A stretch of DNA of 64,000 nucleotides from an uncultured Candidatus Saccharibacteria bacterium (GTDB lineage Bacteria > Patescibacteriota > Doudnabacteria > UBA920): positions 136,226-200,225 of the forward strand of contig CAZEKH010000001.1 of NCBI GenBank assembly GCA_964512925.1, in the 5' to 3' direction. The translations under genes and the position numbers were made by a program. Of this stretch, positions 4,019 through 59,676 are shown in pieces. Position 1 is the first letter of the stretch, and each line of letters starts with the position of its first letter. The notes beneath the pieces were generated by a model that ran no database searches, was not told the DNA's origin, and saw nothing but the letters and a program-made list of their open reading frames with translations.

Positions 4019-6280
4019 TTATTTTGGCCATTTGGATACCATCAGGAGTCCGCCTTTGTCTAGGAGCTTGTGTTCGTTTAAGATTTGCCAGATGTGTTCG
4101 GTAACAAAAGGCATAAAGGGGTGGAGGAGTCTGAGAATAGTATCGAGTATATAGTATAAAGTATTTAGCGTGTTGAGTTTTAATGCTTCGTCGGCCAGTT
4201 GAATTTTACTGGCTTCAATATAGACGTCTGCAAATTCGTGCCAGACAAAGTGATAGATTTCTTGTGCAGCTTCGTGCAGACGGAAGTTCTCCAGGTGTTC
4301 GGTGGAAGATTTAATAAGATTTTCTAATTTGGAGAGGATGTCTTTGTCGGCATCGGTGATTGGCTGCACCCCCTCCCTTAATCCCTCCCCCATCTGATGG
4401 GAGAGGGAAATGGGCGAGGGAGTGTTCTCCTCAGCAGGGGAGGGTAAAGAGGTGAGAATGAAGCGAGCAATATTCCAAAGCTTGTTGGCAAAATGCTTCA
4501 TACCTTTGATTTTGTCTTCAGCAAGTGGAATGTCGTTGCCGGCGGCTGAGGAAAATATTAAAGCAAATCTTAAGGCATCGGTCCCATAGGTATCTATAAC
4601 AGCCAAAGGGTCTATGACATTGCCTTTGGACTTGGACATTTTTTGTCTGTCTTTGTCGCGTACTAGTCCGTGAAGGTAGACTTTTTGAAAAGGAGCTTTG
4701 TTGGTGCGGTAGTAGGAAAGCATAACCATCCTGGCTACCCAAAAGAAAAGTATGTCCCAACCAGTTTCCATAACTTGGGTTGGAAAGAAACTTTTAAAAT
4801 CCAACCTCTCCCCATCCCTCCCCTCAGAAGGGGAGGGGGAAGTAGAAGATTTGCGCTTTTGGTCATTTGCCATAAGTGTGGCAAAAGGCCACTGGCCGCT
4901 AGAAAACCAAGTGTCAAAAGTATCTGGGTCTTGAACTAAAACTTTAGAGTTACATTTTGGGCAAATTGTCTCGGTGTTATTTGTGTCAATTATAAATTCG
5001 GGGCAATTTTGGCAATATTTTGCCGGGATGGATATTCCCCACCAAATCTGTCTTGAGATTGGCCAGTCACGGATGTTTTCCATCCAGTGGCGGAAGATTT
5101 TTTCAAATTTTTCTGTGACAATTTCTACTTCTTTTTTATCCAGTGCTTGTATAGCCATATCGCGCAAACTCGGTCTCCCATCTTTGAGCGGTTTGGTCAT
5201 AGCTATATACCACTGCTGAACAATCTGGGGTTCGATGATTCTGCTGCACTTGTAGCAAGTTTGGACATTGTGTTTATAGTTTTCGTCTATTTTTTCCAAA
5301 AGCCCTTTTTCTTTGAGTTTTTCTACTATTTTTGGTCTGGCTTCTTCAGTGCGCATCCCAGCAAATTCTCCGGCGATAGGTAGAAGCTTGCCGCGAAGAT
5401 CTATAATCTGTTCAAAGTCCAAGTTATGACGTTTAGCAATGTCAAAGTCAACAGCATCGTGCCAGGGGGTGATGGTCATAACTCCACTGCCAAACTCCAT
5501 ATCCACTGCCTTGTCTTTTATGATTGTTGCCGTAATTTTGCCATTGATCCACTCCACATTTTCCAGTTTTTGTCCGTGCTTATACTGCTCGTATCTTTTG
5601 TCGTCCGGATGCATAACTACGTACTTGTCGCCGAACTTAGTTTCAGGACGCGAGGTGCCTATGGTAAAAGGTCCGTATTTAAAATAGTAAAAAGGCTCTG
5701 TGCGTTCTTCGTATTTGGTTTCAAGATCTGCAAGTCCAGTTTGGTGTTTGCTGCACCAGTTGCAAATCCGGCCATCGCGGTAGACAAGGCCGTCTTCGTG
5801 CATTTTTTTAAAAGTGTCGTAAACAACTTTGACTATTTCTGGGTCCAAGGTAAAAATATTTCTACTCCAGTCACAGGAAGCCCCCAGACGTTTTAAGCTG
5901 TTTTCTGTTATGTGTTTGTTGCCCTGTACAAAGTCCCAAATTTCTTTGTAAAAGTCTTCGCGCTGCATCCCAAAACGGCTGCGACCTTCTTTTTCCAGCT
6001 TTTTTTCGTATACCACTTGGGTTTCAAAACCCGCGTGGTCAGTGCCAGGCTGCCACAGGGTTTTAAACCCTTGCATCCTTTTGTAGCGTATTAAAATGTC
6101 TTCAATTGTTACAAATAAAGCGTGCCCTACATGCATAGGCGCATTGGCATTTGGCGGGGGCATTATAATTGTGTAAGGCTCGCCCGTTAGGTTGTCCGGG
6201 TTAAAGTACCCAGAGTCTTCCCACATTTTGTAAATTTTGTCCTCTACTTCGTTTGCGTTGTAAGATTTTTGTAATTCCAT
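4019..6280 (-). CDS. valS: valine--tRNA ligase (class I aaRS); likely start is the internal Met MELQKSYN, the ORF track extends to 6355
   Basis: HIGH-type motif PPPNANAPMHVGHA and KMSKS motif KMSKSKGN. N-terminal YNANEVEDKIYKMWE. Carries two in-frame low-complexity insertions derived from palindromic repeats. Confidence 0.75.
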   Translation of the reverse strand: MELQKSYNANEVEDKIYKMWEDSGYFNPDNLTGEPYTIIMPPPNANAPMHVGHALFVTIEDILIRYKRMQGFKTLWQPGTDHAGFETQVVYEKKLEKEGRSRFGMQREDFYKEIWDFVQGNKHITENSLKRLGASCDWSRNIFTLDPEIVKVVYDTFKKMHEDGLVYRDGRICNWCSKHQTGLADLETKYEERTEPFYYFKYGPFTIGTSRPETKFGDKYVVMHPDDKRYEQYKHGQKLENVEWINGKITATIIKDKAVDMEFGSGVMTITPWHDAVDFDIAKRHNLDFEQIIDLRGKLLPIAGEFAGMRTEEARPKIVEKLKEKGLLEKIDENYKHNVQTCYKCSRIIEPQIVQQWYIAMTKPLKDGRPSLRDMAIQALDKKEVEIVTEKFEKIFRHWMENIRDWPISRQIWWGISIPAKYCQNCPEFIIDTNNTETICPKCNSKVLVQDPDTFDTWFSSGQWPFATLMANDQKRKSSTSPSPSEGRDGERLDFKSFFPTQVMETGWDILFFWVARMVMLSYYRTNKAPFQKVYLHGLVRDKDRQKMSKSKGNVIDPLAVIDTYGTDALRFALIFSSAAGNDIPLAEDKIKGMKHFANKLWNIARFILTSLPSPAEENTPSPISLSHQMGEGLREGVQPITDADKDILSKLENLIKSSTEHLENFRLHEAAQEIYHFVWHEFADVYIEASKIQLADEALKLNTLNTLYYILDTILRLLHPFMPFVTEHIWQILNEHKLLDKGGLLMVSKWPK

Positions 6281-7904: not shown

Positions 7905-7998
7905 GTTGCCTCACCCCCCAGTACTATTTAGTACGGGGCAAGCCAGCCCCCAGCCCGAACGCCGCAAGCGGGCAGGTCTCCGATGTCGGAGAGGGGGT
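7905..7998. repeat. composite GC-rich palindromic repeat (CCTCACCCC / CCCGAACGCC...GGCGGGCAGGTCTCC-loop-GGAGAGGGGG modules)
   Basis: Same modules recur at 48320-48390, 48660-48740, 49140-49205, 52142-52200 and 55830-55900, and inside pgm at 33590-33650. Confidence 0.7.
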
Positions 7999-8004
7999 AG
8001 GGTG

Positions 8005-9105
8005 TTAAATTTGCAAATTGCTGTCCGCTGAAAGTTTTTTGTAGGAGATGGGTTTAAACCCGCCTGCTAGTTTAACCGCTGCGGCAATACCGATCATCTC
8101 TGCGTTGTCGCCGGTTAAGTGTAGGGGAGCGGGGAAGAATTTTAGTCCATTATTTTTAGACATTATCTCCAGTCTCTGCCTAAGCGCGCGGTTAGCGGCA
8201 ACTCCGCCTGACAGCGAGATGGATTTAGCGCCAAACTCTTTGGCTGCGCGCAGGGTTTTTTGGGTGAGAACATCTACAACCGCTTCCTGGAAGGAAGCGC
8301 AAATGTCAGAGGTAGCGTTTAGTGGGTAGCGTTTAGTGGGTAGGGACTGCAGGTGATAGAGGACAGCTGTTTTAAGACCGGAGAAGGAAAAGTTGTAGTT
8401 TTTGTGGGTGAGCATCGGGCGCGGGAAATTTATTGCCTTAGGGTCGCCTTTTTCAGCTAACTTGGAAACTTCCGGTCCGCCCGGGTAGGGAAGTTTGAAC
8501 ATCTTTGCCACTTTGTCAAAACATTCGCCCGCCGCGTCGTCCACGGTTTCGCCGATCACTTTATAGTTATGTAAATCTTTCATCAAAACCAGCATAGTGT
8601 GGCCGCCGGAAACTATGAGAGCAATGGATGGAAACACCCCCTCCCTTAATCCCTCCCCCGTTTTGCGGGAGAGGGAAGTGGAGAATGGTGAATATAGGTG
8701 GCCAAGCATATGGTTAATCGGGATCAGCGGTTTTTTTGTTGCCAGAGAAAGGGCTTTGGCAAACTCTACCCCTACGGCCAAAGAGACTATGAGCCCTGGG
8801 CCTTGGGTGGGGGCAATATAATCCAAATTTTCAATTTTTAATTTTGCAATTTTCAATGCCGACTCTACAACCGGGCGGATATATCTGATGTGAGCGCGGG
8901 CTGCGGCTTCCGGTACTACCCCGCCCATTTTGGAGTGGATTTTAATTTGGGATTTTACGACCGCAGACAGGATTTTTATTTCTGGCAATTTTTTATTAGT
9001 CCCCCTCTGCTGGTGAGGAGAGGGGTTAGGGGAGAGGTTACAGCTTAAAACCGCAGCAGCAGTTTCGTCGCAGGAAGTTTCAATGGCAAGAATTTTTTGC
9101 ATCAT
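8005..9105 (-). CDS. tsaD: tRNA N6-adenosine threonylcarbamoyltransferase TsaD (Kae1/Gcp family)
   Basis: N-terminal ILAIETSCDETAAAV, GGVAANRALR and C-terminal GDNAEMIG motifs. Two in-frame repeat-derived insertions (GEGLREGV; NLSPNPSPHQQRG). Confidence 0.85.
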   Translation of the reverse strand: MMQKILAIETSCDETAAAVLSCNLSPNPSPHQQRGTNKKLPEIKILSAVVKSQIKIHSKMGGVVPEAAARAHIRYIRPVVESALKIAKLKIENLDYIAPTQGPGLIVSLAVGVEFAKALSLATKKPLIPINHMLGHLYSPFSTSLSRKTGEGLREGVFPSIALIVSGGHTMLVLMKDLHNYKVIGETVDDAAGECFDKVAKMFKLPYPGGPEVSKLAEKGDPKAINFPRPMLTHKNYNFSFSGLKTAVLYHLQSLPTKRYPLNATSDICASFQEAVVDVLTQKTLRAAKEFGAKSISLSGGVAANRALRQRLEIMSKNNGLKFFPAPLHLTGDNAEMIGIAAAVKLAGGFKPISYKKLSADSNLQI

Positions 9106-20128: not shown

Positions 20129-20319
20129 TTGAGCAAAAATAAGTAAAATTGACAAAATTGATCAAAATTTAATAAAACGGGACTTACGTATATGGTGTCA
20201 TTCCCGCGGAGGCGGGAATCTAGTTAGTATAACTGTGTTATTTATTAATAAAATTTACTCTGTCACGTCTATTCATCTTTGATAAAAAAAGACAATATGG
20301 ATTTTTAAAAGTGAATAGA

Positions 20320-21079: not shown

Positions 21080-22060
21080 ATGGATATATACAACACTATC
21101 ATCATCGGATCCGGGCCGGCGGGACTGACAGCCGCAATTTATGCTGCCAGGGCTTCTTTGGCGCCTCTGGTTTTGGCCGGACAAAATCCTGGCGGACAGC
21201 TGATGCAGACCACGGAAGTGGAAAATTTCCCCGGGTTTATAAACGGCATACTTGGCCCGGAGCTGATGGAGAACATGACAAAGCAGGCTGAGAGGTTTGG
21301 CGCCAAAATTCTGCAGGAGACTGCGGTTTCGGTTGATTTTAGCGCTCAGCCTTTTGTGGTAACCACAAATATATACAACTCCCAAAAACCACCTCTTAAT
21401 GCAAGAGAGGGCATAGGGGGTGGTATGCCACAAGGGGTATATCTGGCCAAAACCGTGATCATTGCCACGGGCGCGGAAGCCAACTGGCTGGGCTTGCCCA
21501 ACGAGCAGAGGCTTCGCGGCAAAGGCGTTTCCGCCTGCGCTACCTGCGACGGGTTTTTCTTTAAGGGCAAAGACGTGGCAGTCATCGGCGGCGGGGACAG
21601 CGCCATGGAAGAGGCAAATTTCCTTTCCCGTTTTGCCAATACGGTTACCATAGTCCACCGCAGGGAGGAGTTTAAAGCTTCCAAGATAATGCTTCAAAGG
21701 GCAAAAGAAAATCCCAAAATAAAGTTCGTAACCAATGCGGAAGTTTTGGATGTATTAGGCGCGGAAAAAGTTGAAGGATTGAAAATAAAAGATAAAGTTT
21801 CCGGAAGTGAAAGTGATTTAGCTGTTCAAGGAATGTTTTTAGCCATTGGTCATACTCCGGCAGGCAAGATTTTCAAAGACGCGGGCGTGGAAGTTAACGA
21901 GAAAGGCTATATAGTCCCCAAATACCATACAGAAACCAACGTCCCGGGTGTCTTTTGCGCCGGAGATGTGGACGATGCGCGTTACAGGCAGGCCATCACC
22001 GCCGCTGGTATGGGCTGTATGGCTGCTTTGGATGTTGAGAAATATTTAAGCGAAACATAA
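21080..22060 (+). CDS. trxB: thioredoxin-disulfide reductase
   Basis: FAD-binding GSGPAG, redox-active CATCDG, NADPH-binding GGGDSAMEEA. Probable in-frame hairpin insertion near 21375-21425. Confidence 0.9.
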   Translation: MDIYNTIIIGSGPAGLTAAIYAARASLAPLVLAGQNPGGQLMQTTEVENFPGFINGILGPELMENMTKQAERFGAKILQETAVSVDFSAQPFVVTTNIYNSQKPPLNAREGIGGGMPQGVYLAKTVIIATGAEANWLGLPNEQRLRGKGVSACATCDGFFFKGKDVAVIGGGDSAMEEANFLSRFANTVTIVHRREEFKASKIMLQRAKENPKIKFVTNAEVLDVLGAEKVEGLKIKDKVSGSESDLAVQGMFLAIGHTPAGKIFKDAGVEVNEKGYIVPKYHTETNVPGVFCAGDVDDARYRQAITAAGMGCMAALDVEKYLSET

Positions 22061-22635: not shown

Positions 22636-23075
22636 AAAAATATTGTATTTCTGGCAAAGTTGTAAAGGGTCTGGGCTATGGCAGGAAGCTTGGATACCCG
22701 ACTGCCAACATAGAAAGGCGCGGGTGGGCGAGGCTTACAGAAAAACCGAAGACTGGGGTTTGGGCTGGCTGGATGCAATTGAAAATAGAAAATAGAAAAT
22801 TGAAAATAAATCCCTCTCCCTCAATGGGGGATGGGAAGGGGTGGGGGTGGCACAAGGCTGCTGTAGTTATAGGGCCTTTGGACCAATCCGGTCTTCCAAA
22901 AATAGAAGCGCACCTCCTAAATTTTACAGGCAATTTGTACGGGAAAAAAATTACCATTGTTTTAGAAAAGTATTTAAGGCCGTTTAGAAAGTTTAAGACT
23001 GAAGCCGAACTGAAAAAGCAGATAGGGAAGGATGTTCACAGAGTTAGAAAATTTAAAAATAGAGATAAAAAATAA
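22632..23075 (+). CDS. riboflavin kinase domain protein (RibF C-terminal-domain-like)
   Basis: GKVVKGLGYGRKLGYPTANI motif. Repeat-derived in-frame insertion at 22790-22860 (NPSPSMGDGKGWGW). Confidence 0.6.
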   Translation: MKKYCISGKVVKGLGYGRKLGYPTANIERRGWARLTEKPKTGVWAGWMQLKIENRKLKINPSPSMGDGKGWGWHKAAVVIGPLDQSGLPKIEAHLLNFTGNLYGKKITIVLEKYLRPFRKFKTEAELKKQIGKDVHRVRKFKNRDKK

Positions 23076-29684: not shown

Positions 29685-29782
29685 ATTTCCTCCCCTTAGT
29701 GTAAGGGGAGGCTGGGAGGGGATATGAAGTTTTCAGTATCACCCCCTGCCCCCTCTTATGTTAAGAGGGGGGAAAATATTTG
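29685..29782. repeat. m2-m1 junction of the CCTCCCCTTA..TAAGGGGAGG / ATCACCCCC..CCCCCTCTTA..TAAGAGGGGG repeat family
   Basis: Same modules flank the DUF559 gene at 40400-41005, in the opposite order. Confidence 0.6.
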
Positions 29783-29785
29783 CGT

Positions 29786-30880
29786 CTATGCAGATGTTAG
29801 GAAATGAACAACATCCCCATCCTGTACCACATAGGCTTTGCCTTCGGTGCGAAGCCAGCCTTTTTCTCGGGCCTTGCCATAGCTGCCGGCTTCCAGGAGT
29901 TTGTCCCACTGGATGACTTCCGCGCGGATGAAGTTTTTTTCAAAGTCAGAGTGGATCTTGCCTGCGGCCTCAGGCGCTTTGGAGCCGGCTACACAAGTCC
30001 AGGCTTTGGACTCTTTTGGTCCCGCCGTGATGAAAGTTACCAAGCCCAAAGTTTTGTAGGCTTGTTTGATGATTTTGTTTAAACCTGACTCAGGCAGTCC
30101 CAGCTCTTTTAAATATTCGCTCCGTTCTTCGTCAGAAAGTTCGGAAAGCTCGGATTCAAGTTGCGCATCAGCAGATATAAAATCCTTATAGTCCCCCTCC
30201 CCAGGCTTGGGGAGGGTTGGGGAGAGGTCGAAGTTTTTAGTACTTAAATCAAATTTCTGGTTCGCCACAAACAAAAACGGTTTTGTGGTAAGAAGCTGGA
30301 TGTCTTTGCTGTTTTCTTTTTCTTCATCGCTCAAAGAAACTTCAGACGCCATTTTCCCTTGGTTTAAAGCTTCTCTATATTTTTCCAAAACCTGTTTTTT
30401 TATAACCATTTCCCGGTCGCCGGATCTGGCGCCTTTGGAAGCGGTCTCAAGCCTTTTTTCCACATTTTGCAGGTCAGCCAGCTGAAGCTCCAGGCCAATA
30501 GTTTCCATATCCCTTTTTGGGTCCACAGTGCCGGAAACGTGGATGATGTCCTTGTTTTCAAAAAACCTTATAACTTCCATTATAGCGTCCACTTCTCTTA
30601 TGTTTGCCAAAAACTGGTTACCCAAACCTTCGCCTTTGTGCGCGCCGGCAACCAAACCTGCGATGTCCACGAACTCTATGGTAGTAGGCACGACTTTTTC
30701 ACTTTTTTCCTGCTGGGCAAGTTTTCCAAGCCTCTCGTCCGGCACTGTTACGACTGCCACGTTTGGTTCAATAGTTGCAAAAGGGTAGTTGGAAGCCACA
30801 ACCTTGCTTTTGGTAATGGCGTTAAAAAGTGTGGATTTGCCTACATTTGGCAGGCCGACAATGCCGATTTTGAAGCTCAT
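29786..30880 (-). CDS. ychF: ribosome-binding ATPase YchF (Obg-family GTPase)
   Basis: GIVGLPNVGKSTLFNA, NYPFATIEPN, C-terminal TGS domain. In-frame repeat insertion at 30190-30235 (PKPGEGDYKDF). Confidence 0.9.
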   Translation of the reverse strand: MSFKIGIVGLPNVGKSTLFNAITKSKVVASNYPFATIEPNVAVVTVPDERLGKLAQQEKSEKVVPTTIEFVDIAGLVAGAHKGEGLGNQFLANIREVDAIMEVIRFFENKDIIHVSGTVDPKRDMETIGLELQLADLQNVEKRLETASKGARSGDREMVIKKQVLEKYREALNQGKMASEVSLSDEEKENSKDIQLLTTKPFLFVANQKFDLSTKNFDLSPTLPKPGEGDYKDFISADAQLESELSELSDEERSEYLKELGLPESGLNKIIKQAYKTLGLVTFITAGPKESKAWTCVAGSKAPEAAGKIHSDFEKNFIRAEVIQWDKLLEAGSYGKAREKGWLRTEGKAYVVQDGDVVHFLTSA

Positions 30881-31211
30881 AGTTTTTCCTTATAGTCTCC
30901 CTCCCCCTGTCTGCCGCCAGGCAGGCAAAGCTTGGGGAGGGTTGGGGAGAGGTTTGATCTTGAATAATAACGATATACAACCCAAGTATTGTAAATGAAA
31001 TAAGGATTTTCGCCAAGCATTAAATTTTTACTAATGCGAAATAATACAAAGTCATTTTTTTGTGTCATCCCCGCGGAGGCGGGGATCTTGCTAATTGTCA
31101 TTATTTACCGATTTTCATATGGGTAAACTTCAACAGGTATCTAAGTTTGCCCAGCAAGGACTTGATTTTTTCAAAGAGAGAGAGAGTACATTACTGGGCA
31201 AGGAGGTAGTT

Positions 31212-32479: not shown

Positions 32480-33940
32480 ATGCAAAACATAGATACTTCC
32501 ATTTTCAAAGCCTATGACATAAGGGGTATATATCCAACACAGATAGATGCGGATTTGGTATATAAAATTGGTCAGGCGTATTTGCAGTTTCTGCAAACGC
32601 GGAATTACGCTGACCAAGACGCGGACTTACGGAGAAAGTTTAAAATTGTAGTGGGACACGATATGCGCCTGTCTGGGGAGGAGTTTTCTGAAAGCGCAAT
32701 CCGCGCTTTGACAGACGCGGGAGCGGATGTGGTGGATATCGGCCTGGTTTCAACTGATCAGTTGTACTTTGCTGCCGCGACTTTGGACGTTGATGGCGGT
32801 ATTCAGATCACTGCCAGCCACAACCCGAAAGAATACGGCGGGATGAAATTGGTTAGGGAAAAAGGCCGGCCGATTTCGGGGGATAGCGGAATTTATCAGA
32901 TTCGGGATTTGGTAATAAGTAATCAGAAATCAGTTATCAGTGATCAGAGAGGAAGAGTGGAAAAGAAGGATATTACTGAAGAGTATTATAAACATATACT
33001 AAAAACTTTTGAAATAAGTAAATTTAAAAAATTCCGTATAGTTGCCAATGCCAACTTTGGGATGGCTAATCCCGCCATCGAAAAGCTTAAAACTCTTTTG
33101 CCAATTGAGTTTGTGGAAGTTTTAAATGGCCATTTGGACGGCAGTTTCCCTAAAGGACCTTCGGATCCACTACTTCACTCTAACCGTGAAGAAACTATAG
33201 AAGCCATAAAAAAGCACAAACCGGATTTGGGCGTGGCTTGGGACGGGGACGCTGACCGTTGTTTCTTTTTTGATGAGAACGGAAAATTTGTCACACCCGC
33301 GTACATAAACGCGATTTTAGCAGAATACTATTGCAAAAAAAATCCAGGCTGCAAGATACTTCACGATACCAGGGTTGTAAGAGTGATTGATTATGCCGTA
33401 GAAAAAAACGGGGGAGTGAGTGTCATGAACAAAGCCGGCCACTCGTTCATAAAAGAGCGGATGATCAAGGACGACATTGTTTTTGGCAATGAAACTTCGG
33501 GGCACTATTATTTCAAGGACAATTTTTATCTGGATAACGGCCTAATGCCGTTTTTGGCAATACTGTCAATTTTGTCCGAATATATATCTCCCTCATCCTT
33601 TGCGGGAGACCTGCCCGCCGTGGGTGTTCGGGCGGGGGGTCAGGGAGAGGTCGTGCTGTTATCCGATATTCTACAGCCTTTACGCGAGAAGTTTTTTATC
33701 TCCGAAGAGATAAATTTTAAAGTCAAAGATGCCAATCAGGTTATTGAAAGCCTCAGGCAAAAATACCAGGAAGCCAAAATAGATGAAATAGACGGTTTGG
33801 ATTTTAATTTCCCATCCTGGCGCTTCAATGTGCGCAAAAGCAATACAGAACCGCTTTTAAGGCTCAACTTGGAAGCTAATAGCCAAAAAGAGCTTGAGGA
33901 AAAACAAAAAGAAATTAGCGATTTAATTTTAGCCATATGA
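32480..33940 (+). CDS. phosphomannomutase/phosphoglucomutase (alpha-D-phosphohexomutase family)
   Basis: Active-site TASHNPKEYGGMK, metal-binding DGDADR. In-frame palindromic-repeat insertion at 33590-33650 (SFAGDLPAVGVRAGGQGEVV). Confidence 0.85.
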   Translation: MQNIDTSIFKAYDIRGIYPTQIDADLVYKIGQAYLQFLQTRNYADQDADLRRKFKIVVGHDMRLSGEEFSESAIRALTDAGADVVDIGLVSTDQLYFAAATLDVDGGIQITASHNPKEYGGMKLVREKGRPISGDSGIYQIRDLVISNQKSVISDQRGRVEKKDITEEYYKHILKTFEISKFKKFRIVANANFGMANPAIEKLKTLLPIEFVEVLNGHLDGSFPKGPSDPLLHSNREETIEAIKKHKPDLGVAWDGDADRCFFFDENGKFVTPAYINAILAEYYCKKNPGCKILHDTRVVRVIDYAVEKNGGVSVMNKAGHSFIKERMIKDDIVFGNETSGHYYFKDNFYLDNGLMPFLAILSILSEYISPSSFAGDLPAVGVRAGGQGEVVLLSDILQPLREKFFISEEINFKVKDANQVIESLRQKYQEAKIDEIDGLDFNFPSWRFNVRKSNTEPLLRLNLEANSQKELEEKQKEISDLILAI

Positions 33941-40399: not shown

Positions 40400-41005
40400 A
40401 AATATCACCCCCCAGCCCCCTCTTACTTTAAGAGGGGGAGGAGAAAAAAAGGCTCTAATTATTTTATAGAAATGATATTGTTCCGTCCCTCCCCTTAAGA
40501 TAAGGGGAGGTTAGGAGGGGATACTTTTTAGCGCATTTATTGTTTGCAGAATTTTTTCTCCTACGCCATCAATATTTTTAAATACATCAGTATTGTAAAA
40601 TCTTAATACAATAATATTTTGTTTATCTAAAAATTTAGTGCGGATTTCATCATTGATTTTATTTTGTATCTCTAAATGCTGTCCGCCGTCTAACTCAATA
40701 GCAAGTCTTAATTTTGAACAATAAAAATCCAAAATATAATTACCCACGCTATATTGCCGCGTAAATTTATAACCCGTTTGTCTGTTCCTTAAAATCTGCC
40801 AGAGTTTGTATTCTGCATCTGTTTGGTTGTTGCGAAGATTTTTTCTAAGTTGCTTTAACTGTGGGTGTTGGTAAAACATAAAGTATGAGTGAATATCACC
40901 CCCCAGCCCCCTCTCCTGCCAAAGGCGGGCAAGTATTTTAAGAGGGGGAGGTTATTTTTGCATTATCCCTCCCCTTAAGATAAGGGGAGGTTAGGAGGGG
41001 ATAGT
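40400..41005 (-). mobile_element. DUF559 endonuclease cassette bounded by ~110-bp direct repeats
   Basis: Direct repeats 40400-40510 and 40893-41005 (m1 ATCACCCCCCAGCCCCCTCT...TAAGAGGGGGAGG; m2 TCCCTCCCCTTAAGATAAGGGGAGGTTAGGAGGGGATA) flank the 369-bp ORF. Confidence 0.4.
40511..40879 (-). CDS. DUF559 endonuclease-domain protein (Vsr/restriction-endonuclease-like fold)
   Basis: YILDFYCSKLRLAIELDGGQH motif typical of DUF559. Confidence 0.75.
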   Translation of the reverse strand: MFYQHPQLKQLRKNLRNNQTDAEYKLWQILRNRQTGYKFTRQYSVGNYILDFYCSKLRLAIELDGGQHLEIQNKINDEIRTKFLDKQNIIVLRFYNTDVFKNIDGVGEKILQTINALKSIPS

Positions 41006-41013
41006 GTTTCGAA

Positions 41014-42975
41014 TTATAAACTCTTTTTTATAGTCTCTGCCAGTTTTTGCCCCACCACTTCAGCCAGTTCTTCCAATGATGAGTTTTTTATTTGGCTGAC
41101 TGTGCCGAATTTGGTTTTTAAGAGTTTTTTGGTTTTAGGCCCCACGCCCGGTATTTCGTCCAGCGCAGATTTAACGGCTTGCTTGCTTCTTAAGCTTCGG
41201 TGGAAAGTTATGCCAAACCTGTGGGCTTCGTCGCGAAGTCTTTGCAACATCTGAAGCCCGGGCTGATCGTGGCTTAAAACTATGGGAGTGGGATTGCCCG
41301 GTAAAAATATTTCCTCGATGCGTTTGGCCAAGCCGATCAAGGGTATAGGGCTAAGGGCTAAGGGTATAGACTCTATTTTTTCCAGCGCAGCGGATAGTTG
41401 GCCTTTGCCCCCGTCTATCACTATCAAATCCGGTATGGGCCAGAACTCCCCCGGCTTCGCCACCCCCTCTTTGGCAAAGAGGGGGGAGGGGGAGTTCGTC
41501 TGATTTACTGATCCACTGACCAAATGTCCCGACTTGGCTAGTCTTCTGCTTAGCATTTCCTGCATCATCTGGAAATCGTCCGGCGTGTCTTTTGTGCGGA
41601 TTTTAAATTTTCGGTATTCGGATTTTTTAGGCATTCCGCCCTCAAACACCACCATACTCCCGACCGCGTTAGTGCCCTGGGTGTTGGAGATGTCGTAACA
41701 TTCTATCCGCCTTGGGATATTTTTCAAATTCAAAACTTCTTTGAGTTGCTCCAATCCTGCATTTATCCTATCTAGCATAAAGGCTTCGGAAGACTGTTTT
41801 TGTTTGAGAAATTCCAAAGCGTTTTCTTCGGCTATTTTCCAGAGTTTTTGCGGTTGTTTTTGAATTGCTAAATTGATTTTAATAGTTTTGCCTGAGCGTT
41901 CTTTTAGTAAAGCTTCTAGAAGGTTTTGATTTTCAATTTTAGTTCCAGTATAAATTTTTTTCGGAAAATCCGAAGTCTTACTATAATAGTCCTCTAAAAA
42001 CCTTTGCAGCCCAGTTTCTTCCCCCCTTAAGATAAGGGGGGACTGAGGGGGGTTATGATGCAGAGTGGATTTGTAGACATTTGTAAATTTGTCTTTCATT
42101 TGTATATTTGAATTTTTGTAGACAAAATTTTCCTTATCTGCCAGTTTTCCTTGCCTGACTTTCAGTAGACTAAAAGAGATCTCCCCATTTGCTTGGCTTT
42201 GCCCGACAACATCCCAGGAAACTTTTTTAGGCATAATCACATTTTGCTTTTGTTCCAGAGATTCTAGGGATTTGATTTGGTTTCTAAGGCGCGCGGCTTT
42301 TTCAAAAAGTTTTTTAGCCGCGGCTTTTTGCATTTCTCTGGCAATTTCTTTTTTTACGCCTATTATGTCGCCTTGTAAAAATTTTTTAATTTTATCGAGA
42401 TGTTTTGCGTATTCTTCAAGGGTTATTGAGCCTATGCACACACCAGGGCAGCGGTGCAGATGAAAGTAAAAGCAAGGTTTTTGGCCAATTTTCTCATTGG
42501 CGCAATAGGAAAAGATGTAGCGGACAGTTTTAAGAATCTCTTTGGCTTTGTAAGCGGCGGAGTAGGGACCGAAAGAAGTAGGGCTAAGGGCTAAGGGTTT
42601 AGGGTGTAGGGATAGTTCAATATTTCTGGAAATGGTTATTTGGGGTATTTGTGTTGAGTAGTCAATGACAATAAACGCATAGCTCTTGTCGTCTTTTTGG
42701 AGGATGTTGTATTTGGGGCGGTATTTTTGGATCAGGGTTTGTTCCAGGTACAGGCTTTCAAGTTCAGTTGAAACTACTGTAAAGTCTAAGCTTTTTGCTT
42801 CCTGCATCAAGAAAGGAATTTGAGGTCTTTCATCTGTGCCACGGAAATACTGGCTAACTCGGTTTTTCAGGTCTTTGGCTTTACCCACATACAAAACCGC
42901 CCCGTCTTGGTCTTTGTAAATATAGACCCCGGGTTTTTTGGGGAGGCTTGGGAGGGTGAAACTTATTTTTTTCAT
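41014..42975 (-). CDS. uvrC: excinuclease ABC subunit C; start at internal Met MKKISF (the ORF track's upstream extension translates an intergenic hairpin)
   Basis: N-terminal GIY-YIG (GVYIYKDQDGAVLYVGKAKDLKNR), UvrBC interaction region, RNase-H-like endonuclease, C-terminal HhH. At least four in-frame repeat-derived insertions. Confidence 0.9.
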   Translation of the reverse strand: MKKISFTLPSLPKKPGVYIYKDQDGAVLYVGKAKDLKNRVSQYFRGTDERPQIPFLMQEAKSLDFTVVSTELESLYLEQTLIQKYRPKYNILQKDDKSYAFIVIDYSTQIPQITISRNIELSLHPKPLALSPTSFGPYSAAYKAKEILKTVRYIFSYCANEKIGQKPCFYFHLHRCPGVCIGSITLEEYAKHLDKIKKFLQGDIIGVKKEIAREMQKAAAKKLFEKAARLRNQIKSLESLEQKQNVIMPKKVSWDVVGQSQANGEISFSLLKVRQGKLADKENFVYKNSNIQMKDKFTNVYKSTLHHNPPQSPLILRGEETGLQRFLEDYYSKTSDFPKKIYTGTKIENQNLLEALLKERSGKTIKINLAIQKQPQKLWKIAEENALEFLKQKQSSEAFMLDRINAGLEQLKEVLNLKNIPRRIECYDISNTQGTNAVGSMVVFEGGMPKKSEYRKFKIRTKDTPDDFQMMQEMLSRRLAKSGHLVSGSVNQTNSPSPLFAKEGVAKPGEFWPIPDLIVIDGGKGQLSAALEKIESIPLALSPIPLIGLAKRIEEIFLPGNPTPIVLSHDQPGLQMLQRLRDEAHRFGITFHRSLRSKQAVKSALDEIPGVGPKTKKLLKTKFGTVSQIKNSSLEELAEVVGQKLAETIKKSL

Positions 42976-43103
42976 TTGTAGGTTTGAATTTGAGGTCATT
43001 GTCATTCCCGTGAAAACGGGAATCTTAATGAGTTTATTATACTTGTCCGTAACGCAGGTTGACAAATAAATTTGTAAATAGTATACAAAAGCGGGGAGGA
43101 TGG

Positions 43104-43677: not shown

Positions 43678-46584
43678 ATGGCTGATATCATTTCTATCCG
43701 CGGGGCGCGGATGCATAACTTAAAAAATATTGATGTAGATTTGCCTAGAAACAAGCTGGTGGTTTTAACCGGCCTGTCAGGCAGCGGCAAGTCGTCTTTG
43801 GCTTTTGACACCATCTATGCCGAAGGGCAGAGAAGGTATGTGGAAAGTTTGTCAGCTTATGCCAGACAGTTCATTGGTCTTATGGACAAGCCGGACGTGG
43901 ACAAAATAGAAGGTTTGTCCCCGGCAATTTCCATTGACCAAAAGTCCGCATCGCACAACCCTCGCTCTACTGTCGGAACCGTAACTGAAATTTATGACTA
44001 TATGAGGCTACTTTGGGCTCGTGTGGGAGTGCCTCATTGTCCGGTCTGCGGGAAAAAAATCCAAGGTCAAACTATCCAGGCAATGGCTGAGCAGCTTTTG
44101 GGTTTGGAAAAAGGCACAAGGCTGATGCTTTTGGCGCCTTTTATTAAAGATCAAAAAGGCGAACACCGGCATATATTTGAACAGATCAAAAAAGCCGGTT
44201 TTGCCCGCGTGCGTGTGGATGGCACAGTGATGGACTTAAACGAAGCCCAGGGTTTAAGCCTGGACAAGCAAAAAAAACATAATATAGAAGTGGTGGTGGA
44301 CCGCGTGGTGGTAGATCCGGCTGAACGGGGCAGACTCTCCGAGAGTCTGGAAAAGGCTGCGGATTTGGGCGATGGGATAGTTATAGCTTTGCGGGTTGCT
44401 GAAGAAACAAAACCTGACAGCAAGACGCGATCAACCTCTCCCCAGCCCTCCCCAAGTCTTGGGGAGGGAGGCTATAAGGAAATATTGCTCTCCCAAAAAT
44501 TCGCTTGTCCGGACGGACACATTCAGCTGTCTGAGCTGGACCCGAGGGATTTTTCTTTTAACAGCCCGCACGGAGCTTGTTCGGAGTGTAAGGGTTTGGG
44601 CACTAAGCTGACGGTGGAGCCGGATTTGGTTTTACCCAACCACCGGCTGACTTTGGCTGAAGGCGCTATCCGTCCCTGGAGCAAGACGACTTCCAGACAG
44701 TCCTGGTACTCGCGGATGCTGGAAGCCGTGGCCAAAGAATACGGTTTTTCCGTACACACTCCGGTGAAAGATTTGCCAAAAAAATATATTGATATTGTTT
44801 TGCACGGTTCAGGCGAGAAAAAAATCCGCATCTCCGGCGAGTTTAGGAGCGGCGACGGGGAGTTTGAGATGAACACGGTTTTTGAAGGCGTGGTGCCAAA
44901 CCTGGAGAGGCGGTACCGCGAGACTGACTCGGAATATATGCGCAGCGAAATAGAAAATTATATGCGCGTGCGCCAGTGTCAGGTTTGCCACGGCAAGCGC
45001 CTTAGGCTGGAAGTTTTGGCTGTGACCGTAGGCGGACAGGGGATAGTGGAGGTATCTGCTATGACTATAGACAAAGCCGCGGATTTTTTTGAAAAACTTT
45101 CCAAATCTTTGAGCGCCAAAGACAATCAGATTGCCAAACAAATTTTAAAGGAAATTTCCGCGCGTCTGTCTTTTTTGCTCAATGTTGGTTTGTCGTATTT
45201 GTCTTTGGACAGAACTGCGGATACTTTGTCCGGTGGGGAAGCCCAGCGCATCCGTTTGGCGACCCAGATCGGCAGCGGCCTGACCGGAGTTTTGTATATA
45301 TTGGACGAGCCATCTATCGGCCTGCATCAGCGCGACAACGGTAGACTCCTTAAAACATTGAAAGATTTAAGAGATTTGGGCAATACGGTGATAGTTGTAG
45401 AGCACGATGAGGAAACCATTCGCGAGGCGGATTGGGTGGTGGACATCGGACCAGGAGCCGGCAAGCACGGAGGCGAGCTGGTGGCGGAAGGTAAACCTTT
45501 GGATATTGAAAAAAATCCGAAAAGCATCACCGGGCAGTATTTGTCAGGAAAAGAATACATAGAAGTGCCGAAAAAAAGACGGCACGGCAACGGTAAAAAT
45601 ATTTCAGTTGTGGAAGCTTCTGAGTTTAACCTGAAAAATGTTACAGCCCAGATCCCGCTCGGCAAATTTGTCTGCGTAACCGGGGTGTCAGGTTCCGGCA
45701 AATCTACATTGATTTCTGACATTTTAGCCAGAGCGTTAAACAAACATTTTTGGGACAGCAAGGACGAACCAGGCAAGCATAAAAAGATCACGGGACTTGA
45801 ACACCTAGACAAAGTCATCAGCATTGACCAAAGCCCCATAGGCAGGACTCCGAGGTCAAACCCGGCTACTTACACCGGGCTGTTTACGCCGATCCGGGAG
45901 ATTTTTGCCGAAACCCGCGAAGCCAAGATGCGCGGCTATCAGGCTGGCAGGTTTAGTTTCAACGTCAAAGGCGGTCGTTGTGAGAAATGCGCCGGGGACG
46001 GGGTTTTGAAAGTCGAGATGAATTTTTTACCCGATGTCTATGTAACCTGCGAAGAGTGCAACGGCAAAAGGTATAACCGCCAGGCTTTGGAGATCCACTA
46101 TAAAGAAAAAACCATTTCCGATGTTTTGGAGATGACAGTTGACGAAGCAAAAACTTTTTTTGCAGCCGTGCCTGCCTTGCACAAAAAACTGGAAGTCTTG
46201 TCCCAGGTGGGCTTGGGCTATATGCGCCTGGGCCAGAACGCCACGACTTTGTCCGGCGGGGAAGCTCAGAGGATCAAACTTGCAACCGAACTGTCGCGCG
46301 CGTCTACCGGCCGCACTCTTTACCTTTTAGACGAGCCAACTACGGGCTTACATTTTGCGGACGTCAAACGTTTGATCCACGTTTTAAACAAACTGGTAGA
46401 CAAGGGCAACACTGTGGTGGTCATAGAACACAATCTGGATATGATCAAAACCGCGGATTGGCTTTTGGATATGGGTCCGGACGGGGGAGACAAGGGCGGA
46501 ACTATAGTTGCCGAAGGCACACCCGAAGATGTGGCAAAAGTCAAAGTTAGCTTTACCGGCCAATACCTAAAAAAGATTTTATAA
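43678..46584 (+). CDS. uvrA: excinuclease ABC subunit A
   Basis: Two ABC ATPase modules ([12 protein letters not shown]; [11 protein letters not shown]), zinc fingers and signature motifs. In-frame repeat insertion at 44430-44480 ([17 protein letters not shown]). Confidence 0.95.
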
Positions 46585-47149: not shown

Positions 47150-47475
47150 CACACCTTCATACACGACTGTATGAAGGTGTGGGTGGGGAAAGTGGGGGGT
47201 GGGTTGGTTTGTAGAATTGCCACAAAACTGACCAAATAAAGTTTGGATTTTAAATAATCCGCCTTAAATAAGGCGGATTATTTTTGCTATGGGGCTTGAT
47301 TTTTTTGAGGGTTTGTGTTAAAGTAACAAAGCTTTGAATGAGGAATCGACTAAACCTAAGGGTAAGGCCGATTTTTTGTTTGTTTGTCGCGGTGCAGGAG
47401 ATCTCGCACTACGGCAAAAAGCTGCGCCCGTCTCAAAAAGGCGGGTTAAGATTTCAGTTCACCAAGGAGAGGGAA

Positions 47476-48102
47476 ATGTCAGATTTTCGCAAGTTGTTTC
47501 TCGCGGCTTTCGCCGCGATTCTGATGTTCTGGGCGCCGCAGACTGCGTCGGCAGGTTTCGTGGACAATTTCGAATTGAACCCGAACGCTGGGGACGTGGG
47601 CGGTCTAGATGGTTCGAATACGATCTGGGTCGTCACGCCCACCCTGGACGTTGCGGGACCCATGTATGGAGGTCTCTCGTGCCACAGCGGCACGAGTTGT
47701 ATCGACATGGACGGCACTGGCCAGATGGCCGGCTCCCTCAAGACCATGTTCGCTACTATGGTTGGGGCGACTTACACCGCCAATTTCTGGATCGGGGGAA
47801 GTCAGCGCAACTTCCTTGGACCGGATGCGGTGACGGTGAATTTCGGGACCGCGATCCCACTGGTGGTCACGACGCCGCAAGGCGACACCAGCTGGACAAT
47901 GTACACAATGTCTTTCGTCGGTGATGGGAACAACCACTGGTTGGAATTTGTCGGTCAGGGAGCCGACAACGTCGGAGTGTTGCTGGACGACGTGGAACTG
48001 GCCGATAACTCGGTTCCGGAGCCCGCGACGTTCGCGTTGATCGGCGGAGGTCTGGTGCTTCTCGGCCTCAAACGCCGAGGTCGCAAGAACGCCAACAACT
48101 AG
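47476..48102 (+). CDS. secreted protein with C-terminal PEP-CTERM sorting signal; high GC (~60%)
   Basis: Start at Met preceded by GGAGAGGG SD (the ORF track's extension to 47338 is unlikely). Signal peptide. C-terminus VPEPATFALIGGGLVLLGLKRRGRK. Confidence 0.55.
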   Translation: MSDFRKLFLAAFAAILMFWAPQTASAGFVDNFELNPNAGDVGGLDGSNTIWVVTPTLDVAGPMYGGLSCHSGTSCIDMDGTGQMAGSLKTMFATMVGATYTANFWIGGSQRNFLGPDAVTVNFGTAIPLVVTTPQGDTSWTMYTMSFVGDGNNHWLEFVGQGADNVGVLLDDVELADNSVPEPATFALIGGGLVLLGLKRRGRKNANN

Positions 48103-48289: not shown

Positions 48290-49215
48290 TTTGTATAATT
48301 TTTTACATACTAATTAACTCCCCCAAGGCCCCCCGTCCGAACGCCCACGGCGGGCAGGCCTCTTTAAAAAAGAGGGGGGAATGAAGCGGGTAGGTTTGAA
48401 AAAGAGTGGAAAAAATATTACAGTCGTTGCAACCTCACCCCACCCCCTCTCCGATAGCGGAGAGGGGGAAGCGGATGCAAGATTCCAGCCGGAGTTTACC
48501 CCGATGAACATCGGGGCGGGAATGATACCTTTTCTATTTTTGTCATCCCCACATAACCGGGGATCTTGGTTTTTACCCTCTCCAATATGGGAGAGGGTGT
48601 CCCGATGAACATCGGGACGGGTGAGGTTTGAGCGATGGTGATAAAATATAAGTTGGTTTAATTTTCTAACATTGTTACCTCACCCCATCCCCCCGCCCGA
48701 ACGCCACAGGCGGGCAGGTCTCCCAAATGGGAGAGGGGGTAAAGAACGCATCATTCTCACCTAGTGGGAATGATATAGAAACGCGGAATGACGGAATATT
48801 TTTCCTATTTTCCCCAAGTTTCCCACATAGCTTTGCACAGGGGTTTTCCACTTTTGGGGGATAATTTTTGCTGTTTGTTGGGCTTTGACCAGAGGCAGGC
48901 TTTTGTGCCAAGATATAAAGACCACTTTTTACCCCCGTTAGAAGCAATCCGCCGTCAGGTGGATACCGAGCCTTTTTGTGCCCGGGCTTCTAACGGGGTG
49001 ATCTGGTTTGTGGGGACATTAACTCCCCCTGACCCCCTCTTTGAAAAAGAGGGGGAAATGAAAGGGGGTAGATTTGAAAAAGAGGGGAGAGGCTTAAAAT
49101 ATTACAATCATCGTAACCTCACCCCCCTACTTCGTTAAAACTTCGTAGGGCAAGCCAGCCCCCCGCCCGAACGCCCAAGCCGGGCAGGTCTCCGATAGCG
49201 GAGAGGGGAACTAAT
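48290..49215. repeat. ~0.9-kb non-coding repeat cluster
   Basis: Contains CCCTCTCC-loop-GGAGAGGG hairpins, CCGATGAACATCGG hairpins, CCCGAACGCC..GGCGGGCAGGTCTCC modules, a TGTCATCCCC..GGGGATC element and a 75-bp GGTGAGG..CCTCACC MITE-like unit. Confidence 0.7.
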
Positions 49216-50517: not shown

Positions 50518-50895
50518 TAATTTGCTGTCATCCCGGCCTTGAGCCGGGATCCAGGGTTATATGCAAAACGAATGTTATGTATACATCCTTGCAAACAAAA
50601 GAAACGGAACACTGTATGTGGGAGTGACCAATGACTTAATAAGAAGAGTTTATGAACATAAAAATGATTTAACAGAAGGCTTTACTAAAAAGTACCAGAT
50701 ACACACTTTAGTCTATTTTGAAAATACAGGAAATATAGAAAGCGCAATAAAAAGAGAAAAACAGTTAAAAAGATGGCAAAGACAATGGAAAATATCCCTT
50801 ATTGAAAAACAAAATCCGCAGTGGAATGAGTTATACTCTAACTTGACTTAACCCTGGATCCCGGATATCCGCCTAAGGCGGATTCCGGGATGACA
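50518..50895 (+). mobile_element. GIY-YIG gene bounded by inverted hairpin repeats
   Basis: Left TGTCATCCCGGCCTTGAGCCGGGATCCAGGGTT (50521-50553). Right AACCCTGGATCCCGGATATCCGCCTAAGGCGGATTCCGGGATGACA (50840-50887). Both are members of the same element family, in opposite orientation. Confidence 0.4.
50561..50851 (+). CDS. small stand-alone GIY-YIG nuclease (UPF0213-like) inserted between pilB and pilC
   Basis: CYVYILANKRNGTLYVGVTNDLIRRVYEHKN. Confidence 0.7.
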   Translation: MQNECYVYILANKRNGTLYVGVTNDLIRRVYEHKNDLTEGFTKKYQIHTLVYFENTGNIESAIKREKQLKRWQRQWKISLIEKQNPQWNELYSNLT

Positions 50896-52142: not shown

Positions 52143-52265
52143 TGCCCCTCTCCGAGCACGGAGACCTGCCCGCCGTGGGCGTTCGGGCGGGGGGTTAGGG
52201 TGAGGTAACAGTGTTTGAATATTAAATAAGCTTAAATTTTATTACCATCGCTTAAACCTCACCCC
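52142..52265. repeat. composite repeat including a 75-bp MITE-like element (GGTGAGGTAACAG...TTAAACCTCACC)
   Basis: Near-identical copy at 52870-52990. Related copies at 48610-48683 and 58930-59005. Confidence 0.7.
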
Positions 52266-52311
52266 AGCCCTCTCCCATATAGGAGAGGGAGTAAAAACAT
52301 TTCTGACAATT

Positions 52312-52797: not shown

Positions 52798-53056
52798 AAT
52801 AATTTAAGATTAAAGATTAAAGATTGAAGATTTAAACAATACGTTTTTATTTTATATGTATGAGTTTTTTCAAATCCCCCTCTCCACTCTCGGAGAGGGT
52901 TAGGGTGAGGTAACAGTGTTTGAATATTAAATAAGCTTAAGTTTTATTACCATCGCTTAAACCTCACCCCTTCCCTCTCCCATATGGGAGAGGGAGTGAA
53001 AAATCAAAAAAAATAGGGTTGAGATAATGTAAAAAAAATGCTAAACTAAGGCGCAA

Positions 53057-54526: not shown

Positions 54527-54585
54527 ATTACATTTTAGATTCCCTCTCCAAGTGTTGGAGAGGGCTAGGGAGAGGTTGAATTATA

Positions 54586-55083
54586 ATGAGTTATAAATTA
54601 CAAAACCAAAATTTAACTCCCCCTAACCCCTCTTTGAAAAAGAGGGGTGAAGAAGCTGGGTTTACCCTGCTCGAGACTTTGCTTTATATCGCCCTCCTGT
54701 CTTTTTTTCTCGCGAGTTTGGTGGGTATCACTTATCAGTCTTTGGATTCAGCCGGGCAGATTGGCCGAAAAATTGCCATTCAGCAGGAAGCTAACTTTAT
54801 ACTTAGAAAAATGGACTGGGCTATAACCGGTGCTTCGGACATCACCGGAACTGCGGATCATTTAACAATCACAAGGACTGTTTCGCCTACTTCAGTTGAA
54901 TTTATCTCAGATACTCTAAACAAAGGTATGGACATCAAAGCCGAGCTTGGCCAGATGAAGTTAAACAGCAGTAACGTCAAAGTGGAAAATGTAAATTTTG
55001 TCATATCCGGCAGTCCGAAAAAAGTCGTAGCCAGTTTTGATATTAACGGAGAAAATTTTAGTTTGACTAGGTATTTGAGGTAA
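54586..55083 (+). CDS. pseudopilin / minor pilin
   Basis: EAGFTLLETLLYIALLSFFLASL. Confidence 0.7.
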   Translation: MSYKLQNQNLTPPNPSLKKRGEEAGFTLLETLLYIALLSFFLASLVGITYQSLDSAGQIGRKIAIQQEANFILRKMDWAITGASDITGTADHLTITRTVSPTSVEFISDTLNKGMDIKAELGQMKLNSSNVKVENVNFVISGSPKKVVASFDINGENFSLTRYLR

Positions 55084-58717: not shown

Positions 58718-58779
58718 TATTCTCTTCTTTTGCGTAAATACCTACAACTTTGCTACGAAATTACTTGCAGTTTTCCCTC

Positions 58780-59100
58780 CCCTTGAGGGGGAGGGTTAGG
58801 GAGAGGTGATGCAGTGAATTTTTTTTCATCCTCGCGACTTGTCCTTCAGCAGTTTGAACGAAGGAGGAATGTGGGGATCTTGGTTTTTTGCCCTCTCCGA
58901 TATCGGAGAGGGTGTCCCGATGAACATCGGGACGGGTGAGATTTGAGCAATGGTGATAAAACATAAGTTTATTTAATTTTCTAACATTGTTACCTCACCC
59001 CTGACCCTCTCCGAAAGCGGAGAGGGGGAAGAGGATGCAAGATTCCCGCTGGAGTTTATCCCGATAAACATCGGGGCGGGAATGACAGCATTAAATGAAA
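58780..59100. repeat. second copy of the ~230-bp composite repeat unit (circularly permuted relative to 48437-48683)
   Basis: 58872-59005 matches 48553-48683. 59005-59095 matches 48437-48527, both at high identity. Confidence 0.75.
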
Positions 59101-59576: not shown

Positions 59577-59676
59577 GAAATTAGAAGAAAGTTTTTAAAT
59601 ATTAAAGTTTGTTACCTCACCCCAACCCTCTCCGAAAACGGAGAGGGGGTTTGGCCAGAAAATTAACAGAAACAAA

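Follow-up and report, generated by a model that had tools for sequence, protein, structure and literature searches.

Among the short repeats described from bacterial genomes, the Rickettsia palindromic elements (RPE), which Ogata et al. are said to have reported in Science in 2000, are 100-150 bp long, occur only in Rickettsia (with relatives in Wolbachia) and are translated as whole elements. REP/REPIN sequences are short GC-rich extragenic hairpins that also occur as BIME mosaics, and a Y1 enzyme, RAYT, whose single-copy gene is flanked by the repeats, has been proposed as the enzyme that mobilises them. The cyanobacterial small dispersed repeats of Elhai et al. (2008) reportedly nest in other repeats and in hairpin loops, and occasionally in genes. 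Then there is the BoxC/PIT/TMECO family, known for about 30 years and among the most conserved of bacterial short repeats, for which we know of neither an accepted function nor a means of spreading. It is this last family that appears to have multiplied in a 64-kb stretch of Candidatus Doudnabacteria DNA (Patescibacteria, ultra-small bacteria of the Candidate Phyla Radiation, CPR), the whole of which we call the window; the family itself is already known, and what is new here would be its occurrence at unprecedented density and in frame within essential CPR genes.

Holder et al. (Nucleic Acids Research (NAR) 2015; PMC4666352) gave the motif as 5'-CCCTCNCCC-N3-6-GGGNGAGGG-N3-GGGNGAGGG and used the name TMECO for what was formerly BoxC or PIT, citing the earlier work of Bachellier in the 1990s and of Hoyne & Maher in 2000-2002. 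In vitro, the single-stranded motif folds into an intrastrand triplex of the class II purine-motif type, the circular dichroism and nuclear magnetic resonance data being for the E. coli sequence only, and 3610 copies were counted in 262 proteobacterial genomes, along with many G/C-rich triplex motifs in cyanobacteria (PMC4666352). In E. coli K-12, which has 23 copies per genome (~0.005 copies/kb), the motif was described as 'always located intergenically', and it was tied to local genome instability (PMC4666352). A related paper describes similar archaeal repeats, again all intergenic, that switch between triplex and G-quadruplex.

The window repeat has the same anatomy, namely a hairpin rich in G and C and, after it, a third, G-rich arm that is the mirror of the purine arm. 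In the consensus of 16 aligned copies it reads tCCCCTCYCC, a loop of ~6 nt, GGRGAGGG, YTR and GGGNGAGGT (the third arm, after yTr, being GGGnGAGGT), an asymmetric unit of ~40 nt that fits the published consensus with a type A TTA second loop. Of the 159 third-arm positions in 17 window copies, 139 are compatible with G·G:C, A·A:T or T·A:T triads, and across three sub-families the third arm varies in step with the hairpin arms; by their arm pattern the units are potential intrastrand-triplex formers. Arms of the CCCCCTCTT/AAGAGGGGG and CCTCCCCTTA/TAAGGGGAGG types also occur, as do four-armed symmetric units and compound ones in which loop 1 or loop 2 holds additional small hairpins. In addition, a GC-rich module of ~30 nt, CCTGCCCGCC-GTGGGCGTTC-GGGCGGGGGG, is recurrently nested between hairpin and third arm, which makes it a repeat inside a repeat.

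E. coli itself provides a direct comparison. A blastn search with one window copy (52870-52916) found matches in all 5426 of 5426 E. coli genomes at a median of 15 places per genome (range 1 to 29), the best at ~82% identity over all 47 nt, and none of the matches listed lay under an annotated feature; the copy in the mtlA-mtlD spacer, for example, reads ACCCTCTCC-TCAC-GGAGAGGG-TTT-GGGTGAGGG and is followed by its inverted partner. We therefore assign the window repeat to the BoxC/PIT/TMECO intrastrand-triplex family on the strength of its sequence. The strictly intergenic location seen in E. coli does not hold here, since 11 copies lie inside genes, but location is a reported property and not a structural definition, and in-gene placement marks a variant without barring membership. 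Neither is the window alone in this. When the three-armed pattern was scanned over one genome per species it was found at 120 loci or more (127 matches), and the matches listed come from Bacteroidota, Cyanobacteria, Proteobacteria, Chloroflexota, Verrucomicrobiota, many Patescibacteria and one archaeon, with a sequence that is strikingly uniform across phyla; 32 of these 127 fall in long open frames, and the seven motif-bearing frames checked carry Pfam domains of LeuRS, MurG, a pseudouridine synthase, an M16 peptidase, FemAB, a radical-SAM enzyme and a prophage terminase. On a Chitinophagaceae contig (L049, 6261-7862) a unit stands in frame in a phage-type terminase large-subunit gene, so the triplex element also enters prophage or phage genes. 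In the literature that we searched, no account of inserts like these in CPR genomes came up.

An earlier note on this DNA, made from its letters, had called attention to CCCTCYCC-loop-GGRGAGGG hairpins between the genes and to the unusual density of these repeats in essential genes, and both observations are borne out. The window has 15 matches to the strict pattern, with a loop of 3-9 nt, where 100 shuffles lead one to expect 0.00. An nhmmer profile made from the 16 aligned copies finds 41 loci (0.64/kb), 23 of them strong (12 bits or more), whereas the same profile gives 0 to 0.45 copies/kb in the contigs of relatives; for the Doudnabacteria lineage the density is ~0.4-0.6 copies per kb. The window's ValRS, UvrC and YchF match best with proteins of Candidatus Doudnabacteria and other Patescibacteria. 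Rfam holds no family for the triplex unit, and an Rfam scan of the whole window in E-value mode returned two transfer RNAs and sub-threshold chance matches, none of them over units.

Inside genes we find 11 in-frame copies, distributed over eight Pfam-confirmed genes (valS, tsaD, trxB, a ribF-like flavokinase, ychF, pgm, uvrC and uvrA; Table 1). These are the housekeeping genes in which the earlier note had placed them, at or near the same positions, although its count of at least four sites in uvrC comes down to two that can be verified, and its list needs the qualification that the trxB and ribF copies are degenerate and that the pgm copy is compound. Most of these segments are missing in close relatives. 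At valS site 2 there is a clean 42-nt (14-codon) insertion that is missing in two relatives, L001 and L002, whose ValRS is 77-79% identical; the UvrC inserts at residues 310-326 and 493-508 (17 and ~16 residues) are missing in 17 relatives, and the 22-residue insert in pgm is missing in another, L128. The pgm copy escaped the nhmmer profile, but is 94% identical to the intergenic copy at 52160-52206. The tsaD site 2 is empty in L002 and occupied in L001, where it carries a further nested insert, and this insertion is therefore older than the split between the window lineage and L001. Absence from orthologues thus holds for valS site 2, uvrC, pgm, the flavokinase and, in one relative, tsaD site 2; it does not hold for valS site 1 and tsaD site 1, where relatives have other sequence in the loop, nor for ychF. 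In this last case, in which orthologues do carry the segment, sharing is confined to a four-species clade made up of the window and its three closest relatives, and the insertion is simply old. Since the ychF and tsaD site 2 copies are common to relatives and those of valS site 2, uvrC, pgm and the flavokinase are not, the insertions differ in age and have accumulated over time in the lineage.

The first sites of valS and tsaD are a case apart. Their DNA shares 87% identity across 47 nt and both copies use one reading frame, which is why ValRS and TsaD share the peptide GEGLREGV, an identity that the earlier note had noticed. In both loops the relatives carry other short AT-rich sequences of similar length, so these loops are hot spots and not simple filled or empty sites. 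As a separate observation, the valS and tsaD orthologues of L001 and L002, and the proteins P0005, P0009, P0039, P0047 and P0125, have at these loops AT-rich inserts translated SKIQITNNK, KFQNPNSK or NSYKLQVTS, and further inserts translated EAILPQEKIASDALAM or ILRSAQDDK; these look like further repeat families colonising the protein loops of Patescibacteria.

Where structures or models are available, the inserts sit in loops. The AlphaFold2 model of ValRS puts both of its inserts in low-confidence coil between confident helices, with a predicted local distance difference test score (pLDDT) below 50 at site 2, and the TsaD, UvrA and TrxB inserts coincide with gaps or unaligned stretches relative to solved homologues; in YchF the solved protein has, where the segment lies, another stretch of similar length. 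Each of the 11 in-gene copies folds into a hairpin, at -13.5 to -36.7 kcal/mol. The RNA-fold z-scores are significant for only a few copies, because shuffled sequences made of C-blocks and G-blocks also fold well, and for that reason the hairpin potential is better shown by the pattern statistics above (15 against 0).

The suggestion that the element selects, or tolerates only, insertions that keep the frame and land in surface loops survives in its second half, the inserts being in variable, low-confidence loops, but not in its first. Of the reading frames through unit copies 64% are open, against 60% for random 38-mers, and the idea that the unit is intrinsically stop-free was rejected on these figures. 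Among the clear three-armed cases the units lie four and four in the two orientations with respect to the host gene, and at least two frames are used. As to the strong loci, 6 of the 23 are in confirmed housekeeping genes and 17 in intergenic DNA or doubtful repeat-made open reading frames (ORFs), which together are a minority of the window, so that by rough estimate the number of units per kb is about ten times lower inside genes than in the DNA separating them. Gene depletion, both orientations and no frame preference make up the pattern expected from selection that purges disruptive insertions. The in-frame state looks like survivorship, and an element that chooses its frame has no support. 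Furthermore, in-gene copies are bare units of 37-66 nt, and we see the AT-rich spacer of the full element in none of the genes.

That full element is intergenic. Outside genes the units commonly stand tail to tail in pairs, each with its hairpin on the outer side and its third arm on the inner, around a centre of 14-49 nt, and four such elements with AT-rich centres of 47-49 nt are 87-95% identical over 106-128 nt; the copies at 48570-48740 and 58885-59092, for example, are 87-90% identical. Short, non-coding, ending in inverted repeats and found in several copies that are nearly identical, the ~125-nt arrangement of unit, spacer and inverted unit resembles a MITE (a miniature transposable element with inverted repeats), the three-armed units standing in for the 'terminal inverted repeats'.

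We think it likely, taking all this together, that the BoxC/PIT/TMECO family has multiplied in this Doudnabacteria lineage as miniature inserted DNA, mobile or copied, and that the in-gene copies are the survivors. Between genes the ~125-nt unit-spacer-inverted unit prevails; genes hold bare units only. The copies that survive in genes have a length divisible by three and no stop codon, lie in freely varying loops, and are translated as Pro/Ser/Leu ... Gly/Glu/Arg peptides whose sequence is set by orientation and frame. How the units spread we infer from the arrangement of the DNA, and here one gene deserves attention: a DUF559 nuclease may act on the structured unit ends, or the DUF559 gene may home into unit pairs.

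The window contains a DUF559 endonuclease gene between two units (Table 1), and this whole arrangement has a unit pair, directly repeated, on its two sides (40401-40523 and 40892-41003). The third arms of the bracketing units face the gene, whose reading frame ends inside one of them, and among the selected ORFs that were scanned against Pfam this is the only gene found between two units. In the relative L127 a DUF559 gene lies between inverted units immediately downstream of ychF, and the matching place in the window has two units only 14 nt apart (29687-29773). The link extends well beyond this lineage. We fetched 80 metagenomic loci for relatives of the window's DUF559 and counted the motif by distance from the gene ends: within 230 nt there are 52 matches in 38.6 kb (1.3/kb), against 12 in 268 kb elsewhere in the loci (0.04/kb) and 2 in 19.6 kb of distant non-ORF DNA (0.10/kb), a local enrichment of ~13- to 30-fold, and the third arm is gene-proximal in 20 of 25 upstream and 20 of 27 downstream matches. 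The reading frame of ycjD, the DUF559 gene of E. coli K-12, terminates within a degenerate motif (…RRSPSP, then stop), and 3' of it come a duplicated fragment of the ycjD 3' end and then a canonical BoxC (L210, 1351040-1351830); motif copies occur only at and beyond this 3' end. The gene is accessory, being present in 3378 of 5426 complete E. coli genomes. In one strain that lacks it, sapF is followed by genes for a major facilitator superfamily (MFS) efflux transporter and an outer-membrane efflux subunit, with fabI not seen within 1.5 kb of sapF, so that this strain is uninformative as an empty site. In the papers found to mention DUF559, as judged by titles, abstract openings and term counts, it was not linked to palindromes or BoxC repeats. 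A further locus, L093 (4592-7999), has a single 1136-codon frame with a DUF559 domain (340-444) followed by a UvrD-helicase N-terminal domain (843-1093) and a triplex motif ~70 codons upstream of the DUF559 domain; the frame may be a fusion or a read-through of adjacent genes.

A tentative proposal, which we put forward while regarding it as more doubtful than the multiplication of the family itself, is that DUF559, a Vsr-like PD-(D/E)xK endonuclease, might be the missing partner of BoxC/PIT triplex elements. The bracketed gene would then be an unrecognised pan-bacterial miniature mobile or homing element, and ends that lack the gene would travel as passengers of 40 nt and 125 nt, which in CPR genomes would reach even the loops of essential proteins.

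A number of points weigh against this account, both as to multiplication and as to the nuclease. At valS site 1 and tsaD site 1, replacement or repeated use of the site is indistinguishable from insertion. No target-site duplication is resolvable at valS site 2, because the closest relatives are ~20% diverged in protein and no exact junction can be defined. In the published work, no triplex was seen in double-stranded DNA or in vivo, and a transposase or integrase was never found near the motif (PMC4666352). For the nuclease, only 30 of the 80 DUF559 loci have the motif at the threshold used, and from the other side 7 of the 120 motif-selected loci listed have a DUF559 gene within 8 kb in a single-query tblastn search. 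The association is thus visible only when one starts from the gene, and most motif copies are far from any DUF559 gene. To our knowledge no biochemical activity of DUF559 on such DNA has been described. The association could also be a mere target preference, or the third arm, which contains GAGGT, could serve as a ribosome-binding site. Derivation of the 125-nt element from the DUF559 cassette by deletion was considered and rejected, its spacer being unrelated to the cassette ends. Finally, at synonymous sites the ychF copy shows higher conservation than the gene that hosts it, which would not be predicted for simple junk DNA.

This last point bears on the rival idea that the units are not parasites at all, but functional cis-elements under selection, be it as a DNA or RNA structure, a protein-binding site, a recombination or replication signal, or a triplex/G-quadruplex switch; the copies within genes would then be tolerated or put to use where such a nucleic-acid signal is required. 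Across the four species the ychF element is 78-92% identical in nucleotides and 75-83% at third codon positions, while the rest of ychF is 69-73% identical and, at 43-52%, essentially saturated at third positions. There is also a paired change in its hairpin, CCCTCCCC/GGGGAGGG in the window against CCCTCTTC/GGAGAGGG in L127, which keeps most of the pairing and leaves one G-T mismatch. These observations suggest constraint on the nucleic-acid sequence or gene conversion, although with 12 third positions they are a lead only. The co-variation of the third arm with the hairpin arms and the conservation across phyla point the same way. Against this, the positions of units are unconserved beyond small clades, most copies are missing in relatives that are 77-80% identical in protein, and both orientations occur within genes. 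The published tests, moreover, found no promoter, terminator or regulatory role for the motif and no triplex in vivo, and conservation of a multi-copy sequence can also be explained by gene conversion. We consider selected cis-elements an unlikely explanation of the whole pattern.

The analogy with RPE (which are mentioned in passages of PMC1779305 and PMC2229807) had been drawn in the earlier note, and as far as behaviour goes it is apt: the copies are in frame in essential genes, occupy loops and are missing in relatives, and the full intergenic form of ~125 nt is RPE-sized. As kinship it fails, for here the unit is ~40 nt, the host is a Patescibacterium and the sequence is BoxC. An independent, lineage-specific palindromic MITE with specific in-frame gene insertion would also be hard to reconcile with a unit shared by many phyla and present in all E. 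coli genomes searched, with in-gene copies of 37-66 nt in place of whole palindromes of 100-150 nt, or with the lack of frame specificity, and we judge it improbable. Still further from the data is the notion that the peptides are selected protein modules and the nucleotide similarity a by-product. The identical GEGLREGV in two proteins would fit, but one DNA unit gives different peptides according to orientation and frame, identical units abound in non-coding DNA, the inserts are predicted to be low-confidence coil, and conservation is at the nucleotide level, third positions included; we give this very little credence. That repeats, a known hazard for assemblers, were wrongly spliced into the genes of what is a metagenome-assembled genome is hardly believable, as all in-gene copies keep the frame, the exact YchF protein with its insert is on record in two sources, NCBI and Logan (2 contigs), and orthologous ychF copies occur in contigs from three other samples.

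Several consequences follow. The reading frames suggest that BoxC units can colonise coding sequence and be translated, which contradicts the 'always intergenic' picture drawn from E. coli, and units of this kind contribute to the insert-rich proteins of this genome and of related ones in the Patescibacteria. Inserts of this sort make proteins look more divergent than they are and may bias the alignments behind CPR phylogeny, and the repeat arrays yield spurious 'hypothetical' ORFs. It may matter more than our main result that DUF559 (ycjD in E. coli) is now a concrete candidate partner gene for an old descriptive puzzle.

Some other features of the window are worth recording. Four ORFs of 74-116 codons (48381-48608, 48788-49138, 58973-59197 and 30877-31101) partly or largely overlie repeat units and are probably not genes. 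Adjoining the densest repeat array, ORF 47338-48102 has a C-terminal PEP-CTERM sorting motif (Pfam E = 1.6e-5), which is unexpected in a Patescibacterium. A separate family of small hairpin repeats, TTGTCATTCCCGCGGAGGCGGGAATCTT, unrelated to the triplex unit, has five copies, mostly just outside genes, three of which coincide with sub-threshold Rfam 'FtrB' matches; related repeats containing GGGATGACA lie at 50852-50895 and 55945-55988.

Table 1. Repeat copies and associated features of the window, by position and strand.
Feature	Position	Strand	Remarks
valS site 1, four-armed (outer arm, hairpin, outer arm)	4371..4418	-	translated TPSPISLSHQMGEGLREGV
valS, degenerate second copy, neighbour of site 1	4426-4455
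valS site 2, three-armed	4803..4844	-	27.3 bits; translated TSPSPSEGRDGERL
tsaD site 1	8636..8684	-	translation includes GEGLREGV; gap relative to solved TsaD
tsaD site 2, three-armed	9000..9039	+	translated NLSPNPSPHQQRG
trxB, degenerate copy	21386..21425	+	9.8 bits (weak); loop of ~19 extra residues relative to solved homologues
flavokinase (ribF-like), degenerate, weak copy	22810..22845	+	12-residue insert NPSPSMGDGKGW, missing in L127
ychF, near-consensus, three-armed	30192..30228	+	30.3 bits; translated DLSPTLPKPGEG
pgm, compound (hairpin, nested 30-nt GC-rich module, third arm)	33587..33651	+
uvrC, variant B, CCCCCTCTT-loop-AAGAGGGGG with outer arms	41462..41499	+	in variable linker
uvrC, three-armed	42019..42055	+	20.5 bits; in 17-residue insert KSTLHHNPPQSPLILRG
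uvrA, three-armed	44433..44469	-	26.1 bits; within ~24 extra residues relative to solved UvrA
DUF559 endonuclease gene	40511-40879	-	122 residues; Pfam PF04480, E = 1e-32; related to PDB 3HRL 'endonuclease-like protein'
DUF559 region	40401..41003	-	gene bracketed by units 40486-40523 and 40892-40951
Compound intergenic copy	7905..8003	-	third arm, two nested hairpins, main hairpin
Tail-to-tail unit pair, 14-nt centre	29687..29773	.	just downstream of ychF
Intergenic unit, small hairpin nested in loop 1	30895..30954	+	upstream of ychF
Mosaic array of simple and compound units	48318..49210	.	contains unit-spacer-unit element 48570-48740
Full element: unit, 47-nt AT-rich spacer, inverted unit	52146..52297	.	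left unit with nested 30-nt module
Second unit-spacer-unit copy	52870..53002	.	95% identical over 106 nt to 52192-52297
Tail-to-tail unit pair, 37-nt centre	54540..54650	.	between two pilin-like genes
Intergenic units, including a unit-spacer-unit element	58774..59030	.	element with nested GTCCCGATGAACATCGGGAC hairpin
Solitary near-consensus intergenic unit	59613..59649	-	31.0 bits
Nested 30-nt module, sites	33605-33651, 52160-52206, 55854-55900, 7936-7975, 48678-48718, 49148-49188, 48325-48360
TTGTCATTCCCGCGGAGGCGGGAATCTT family, copies	20195-20226, 31062-31093, 42999-43030, 48540-48571, 55802-55833

Set beside the systems with which we began, the window repeat shares something with each. The cyanobacterial small dispersed repeats are reportedly alike in size, in nesting and in gene entry, and would differ in sequence. 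With RPE it has in common that a repeated palindromic element lies in frame in essential genes and adds translated segments while function is kept; the differences, drawn from size, distribution and host, are a translated unit of 37-66 nt, a family spread across phyla and a Doudnabacterium as host. The REP/REPIN-RAYT system and BIMEs likewise have inverted hairpin pairs or mosaics and a gene flanked by repeats, but the window unit has a third mirror arm and in-gene copies, the flanked gene encodes DUF559 and not a Y1 transposase, and the flanks of 16 window and 127 other-genome copies show no GTAG/CGTC tag beside the hairpin. It is with E. coli BoxC that the likeness is closest, extending over the C-rich arm, the 3-9 nt loop, the G-rich arm, the TTA-type loop, the mirror G-rich arm and the arrangement in inverted pairs; to these the window adds translated copies inside genes, nested extra hairpins, a DUF559 gene between inverted units and a density of ~0.4-0.6 copies per kb.

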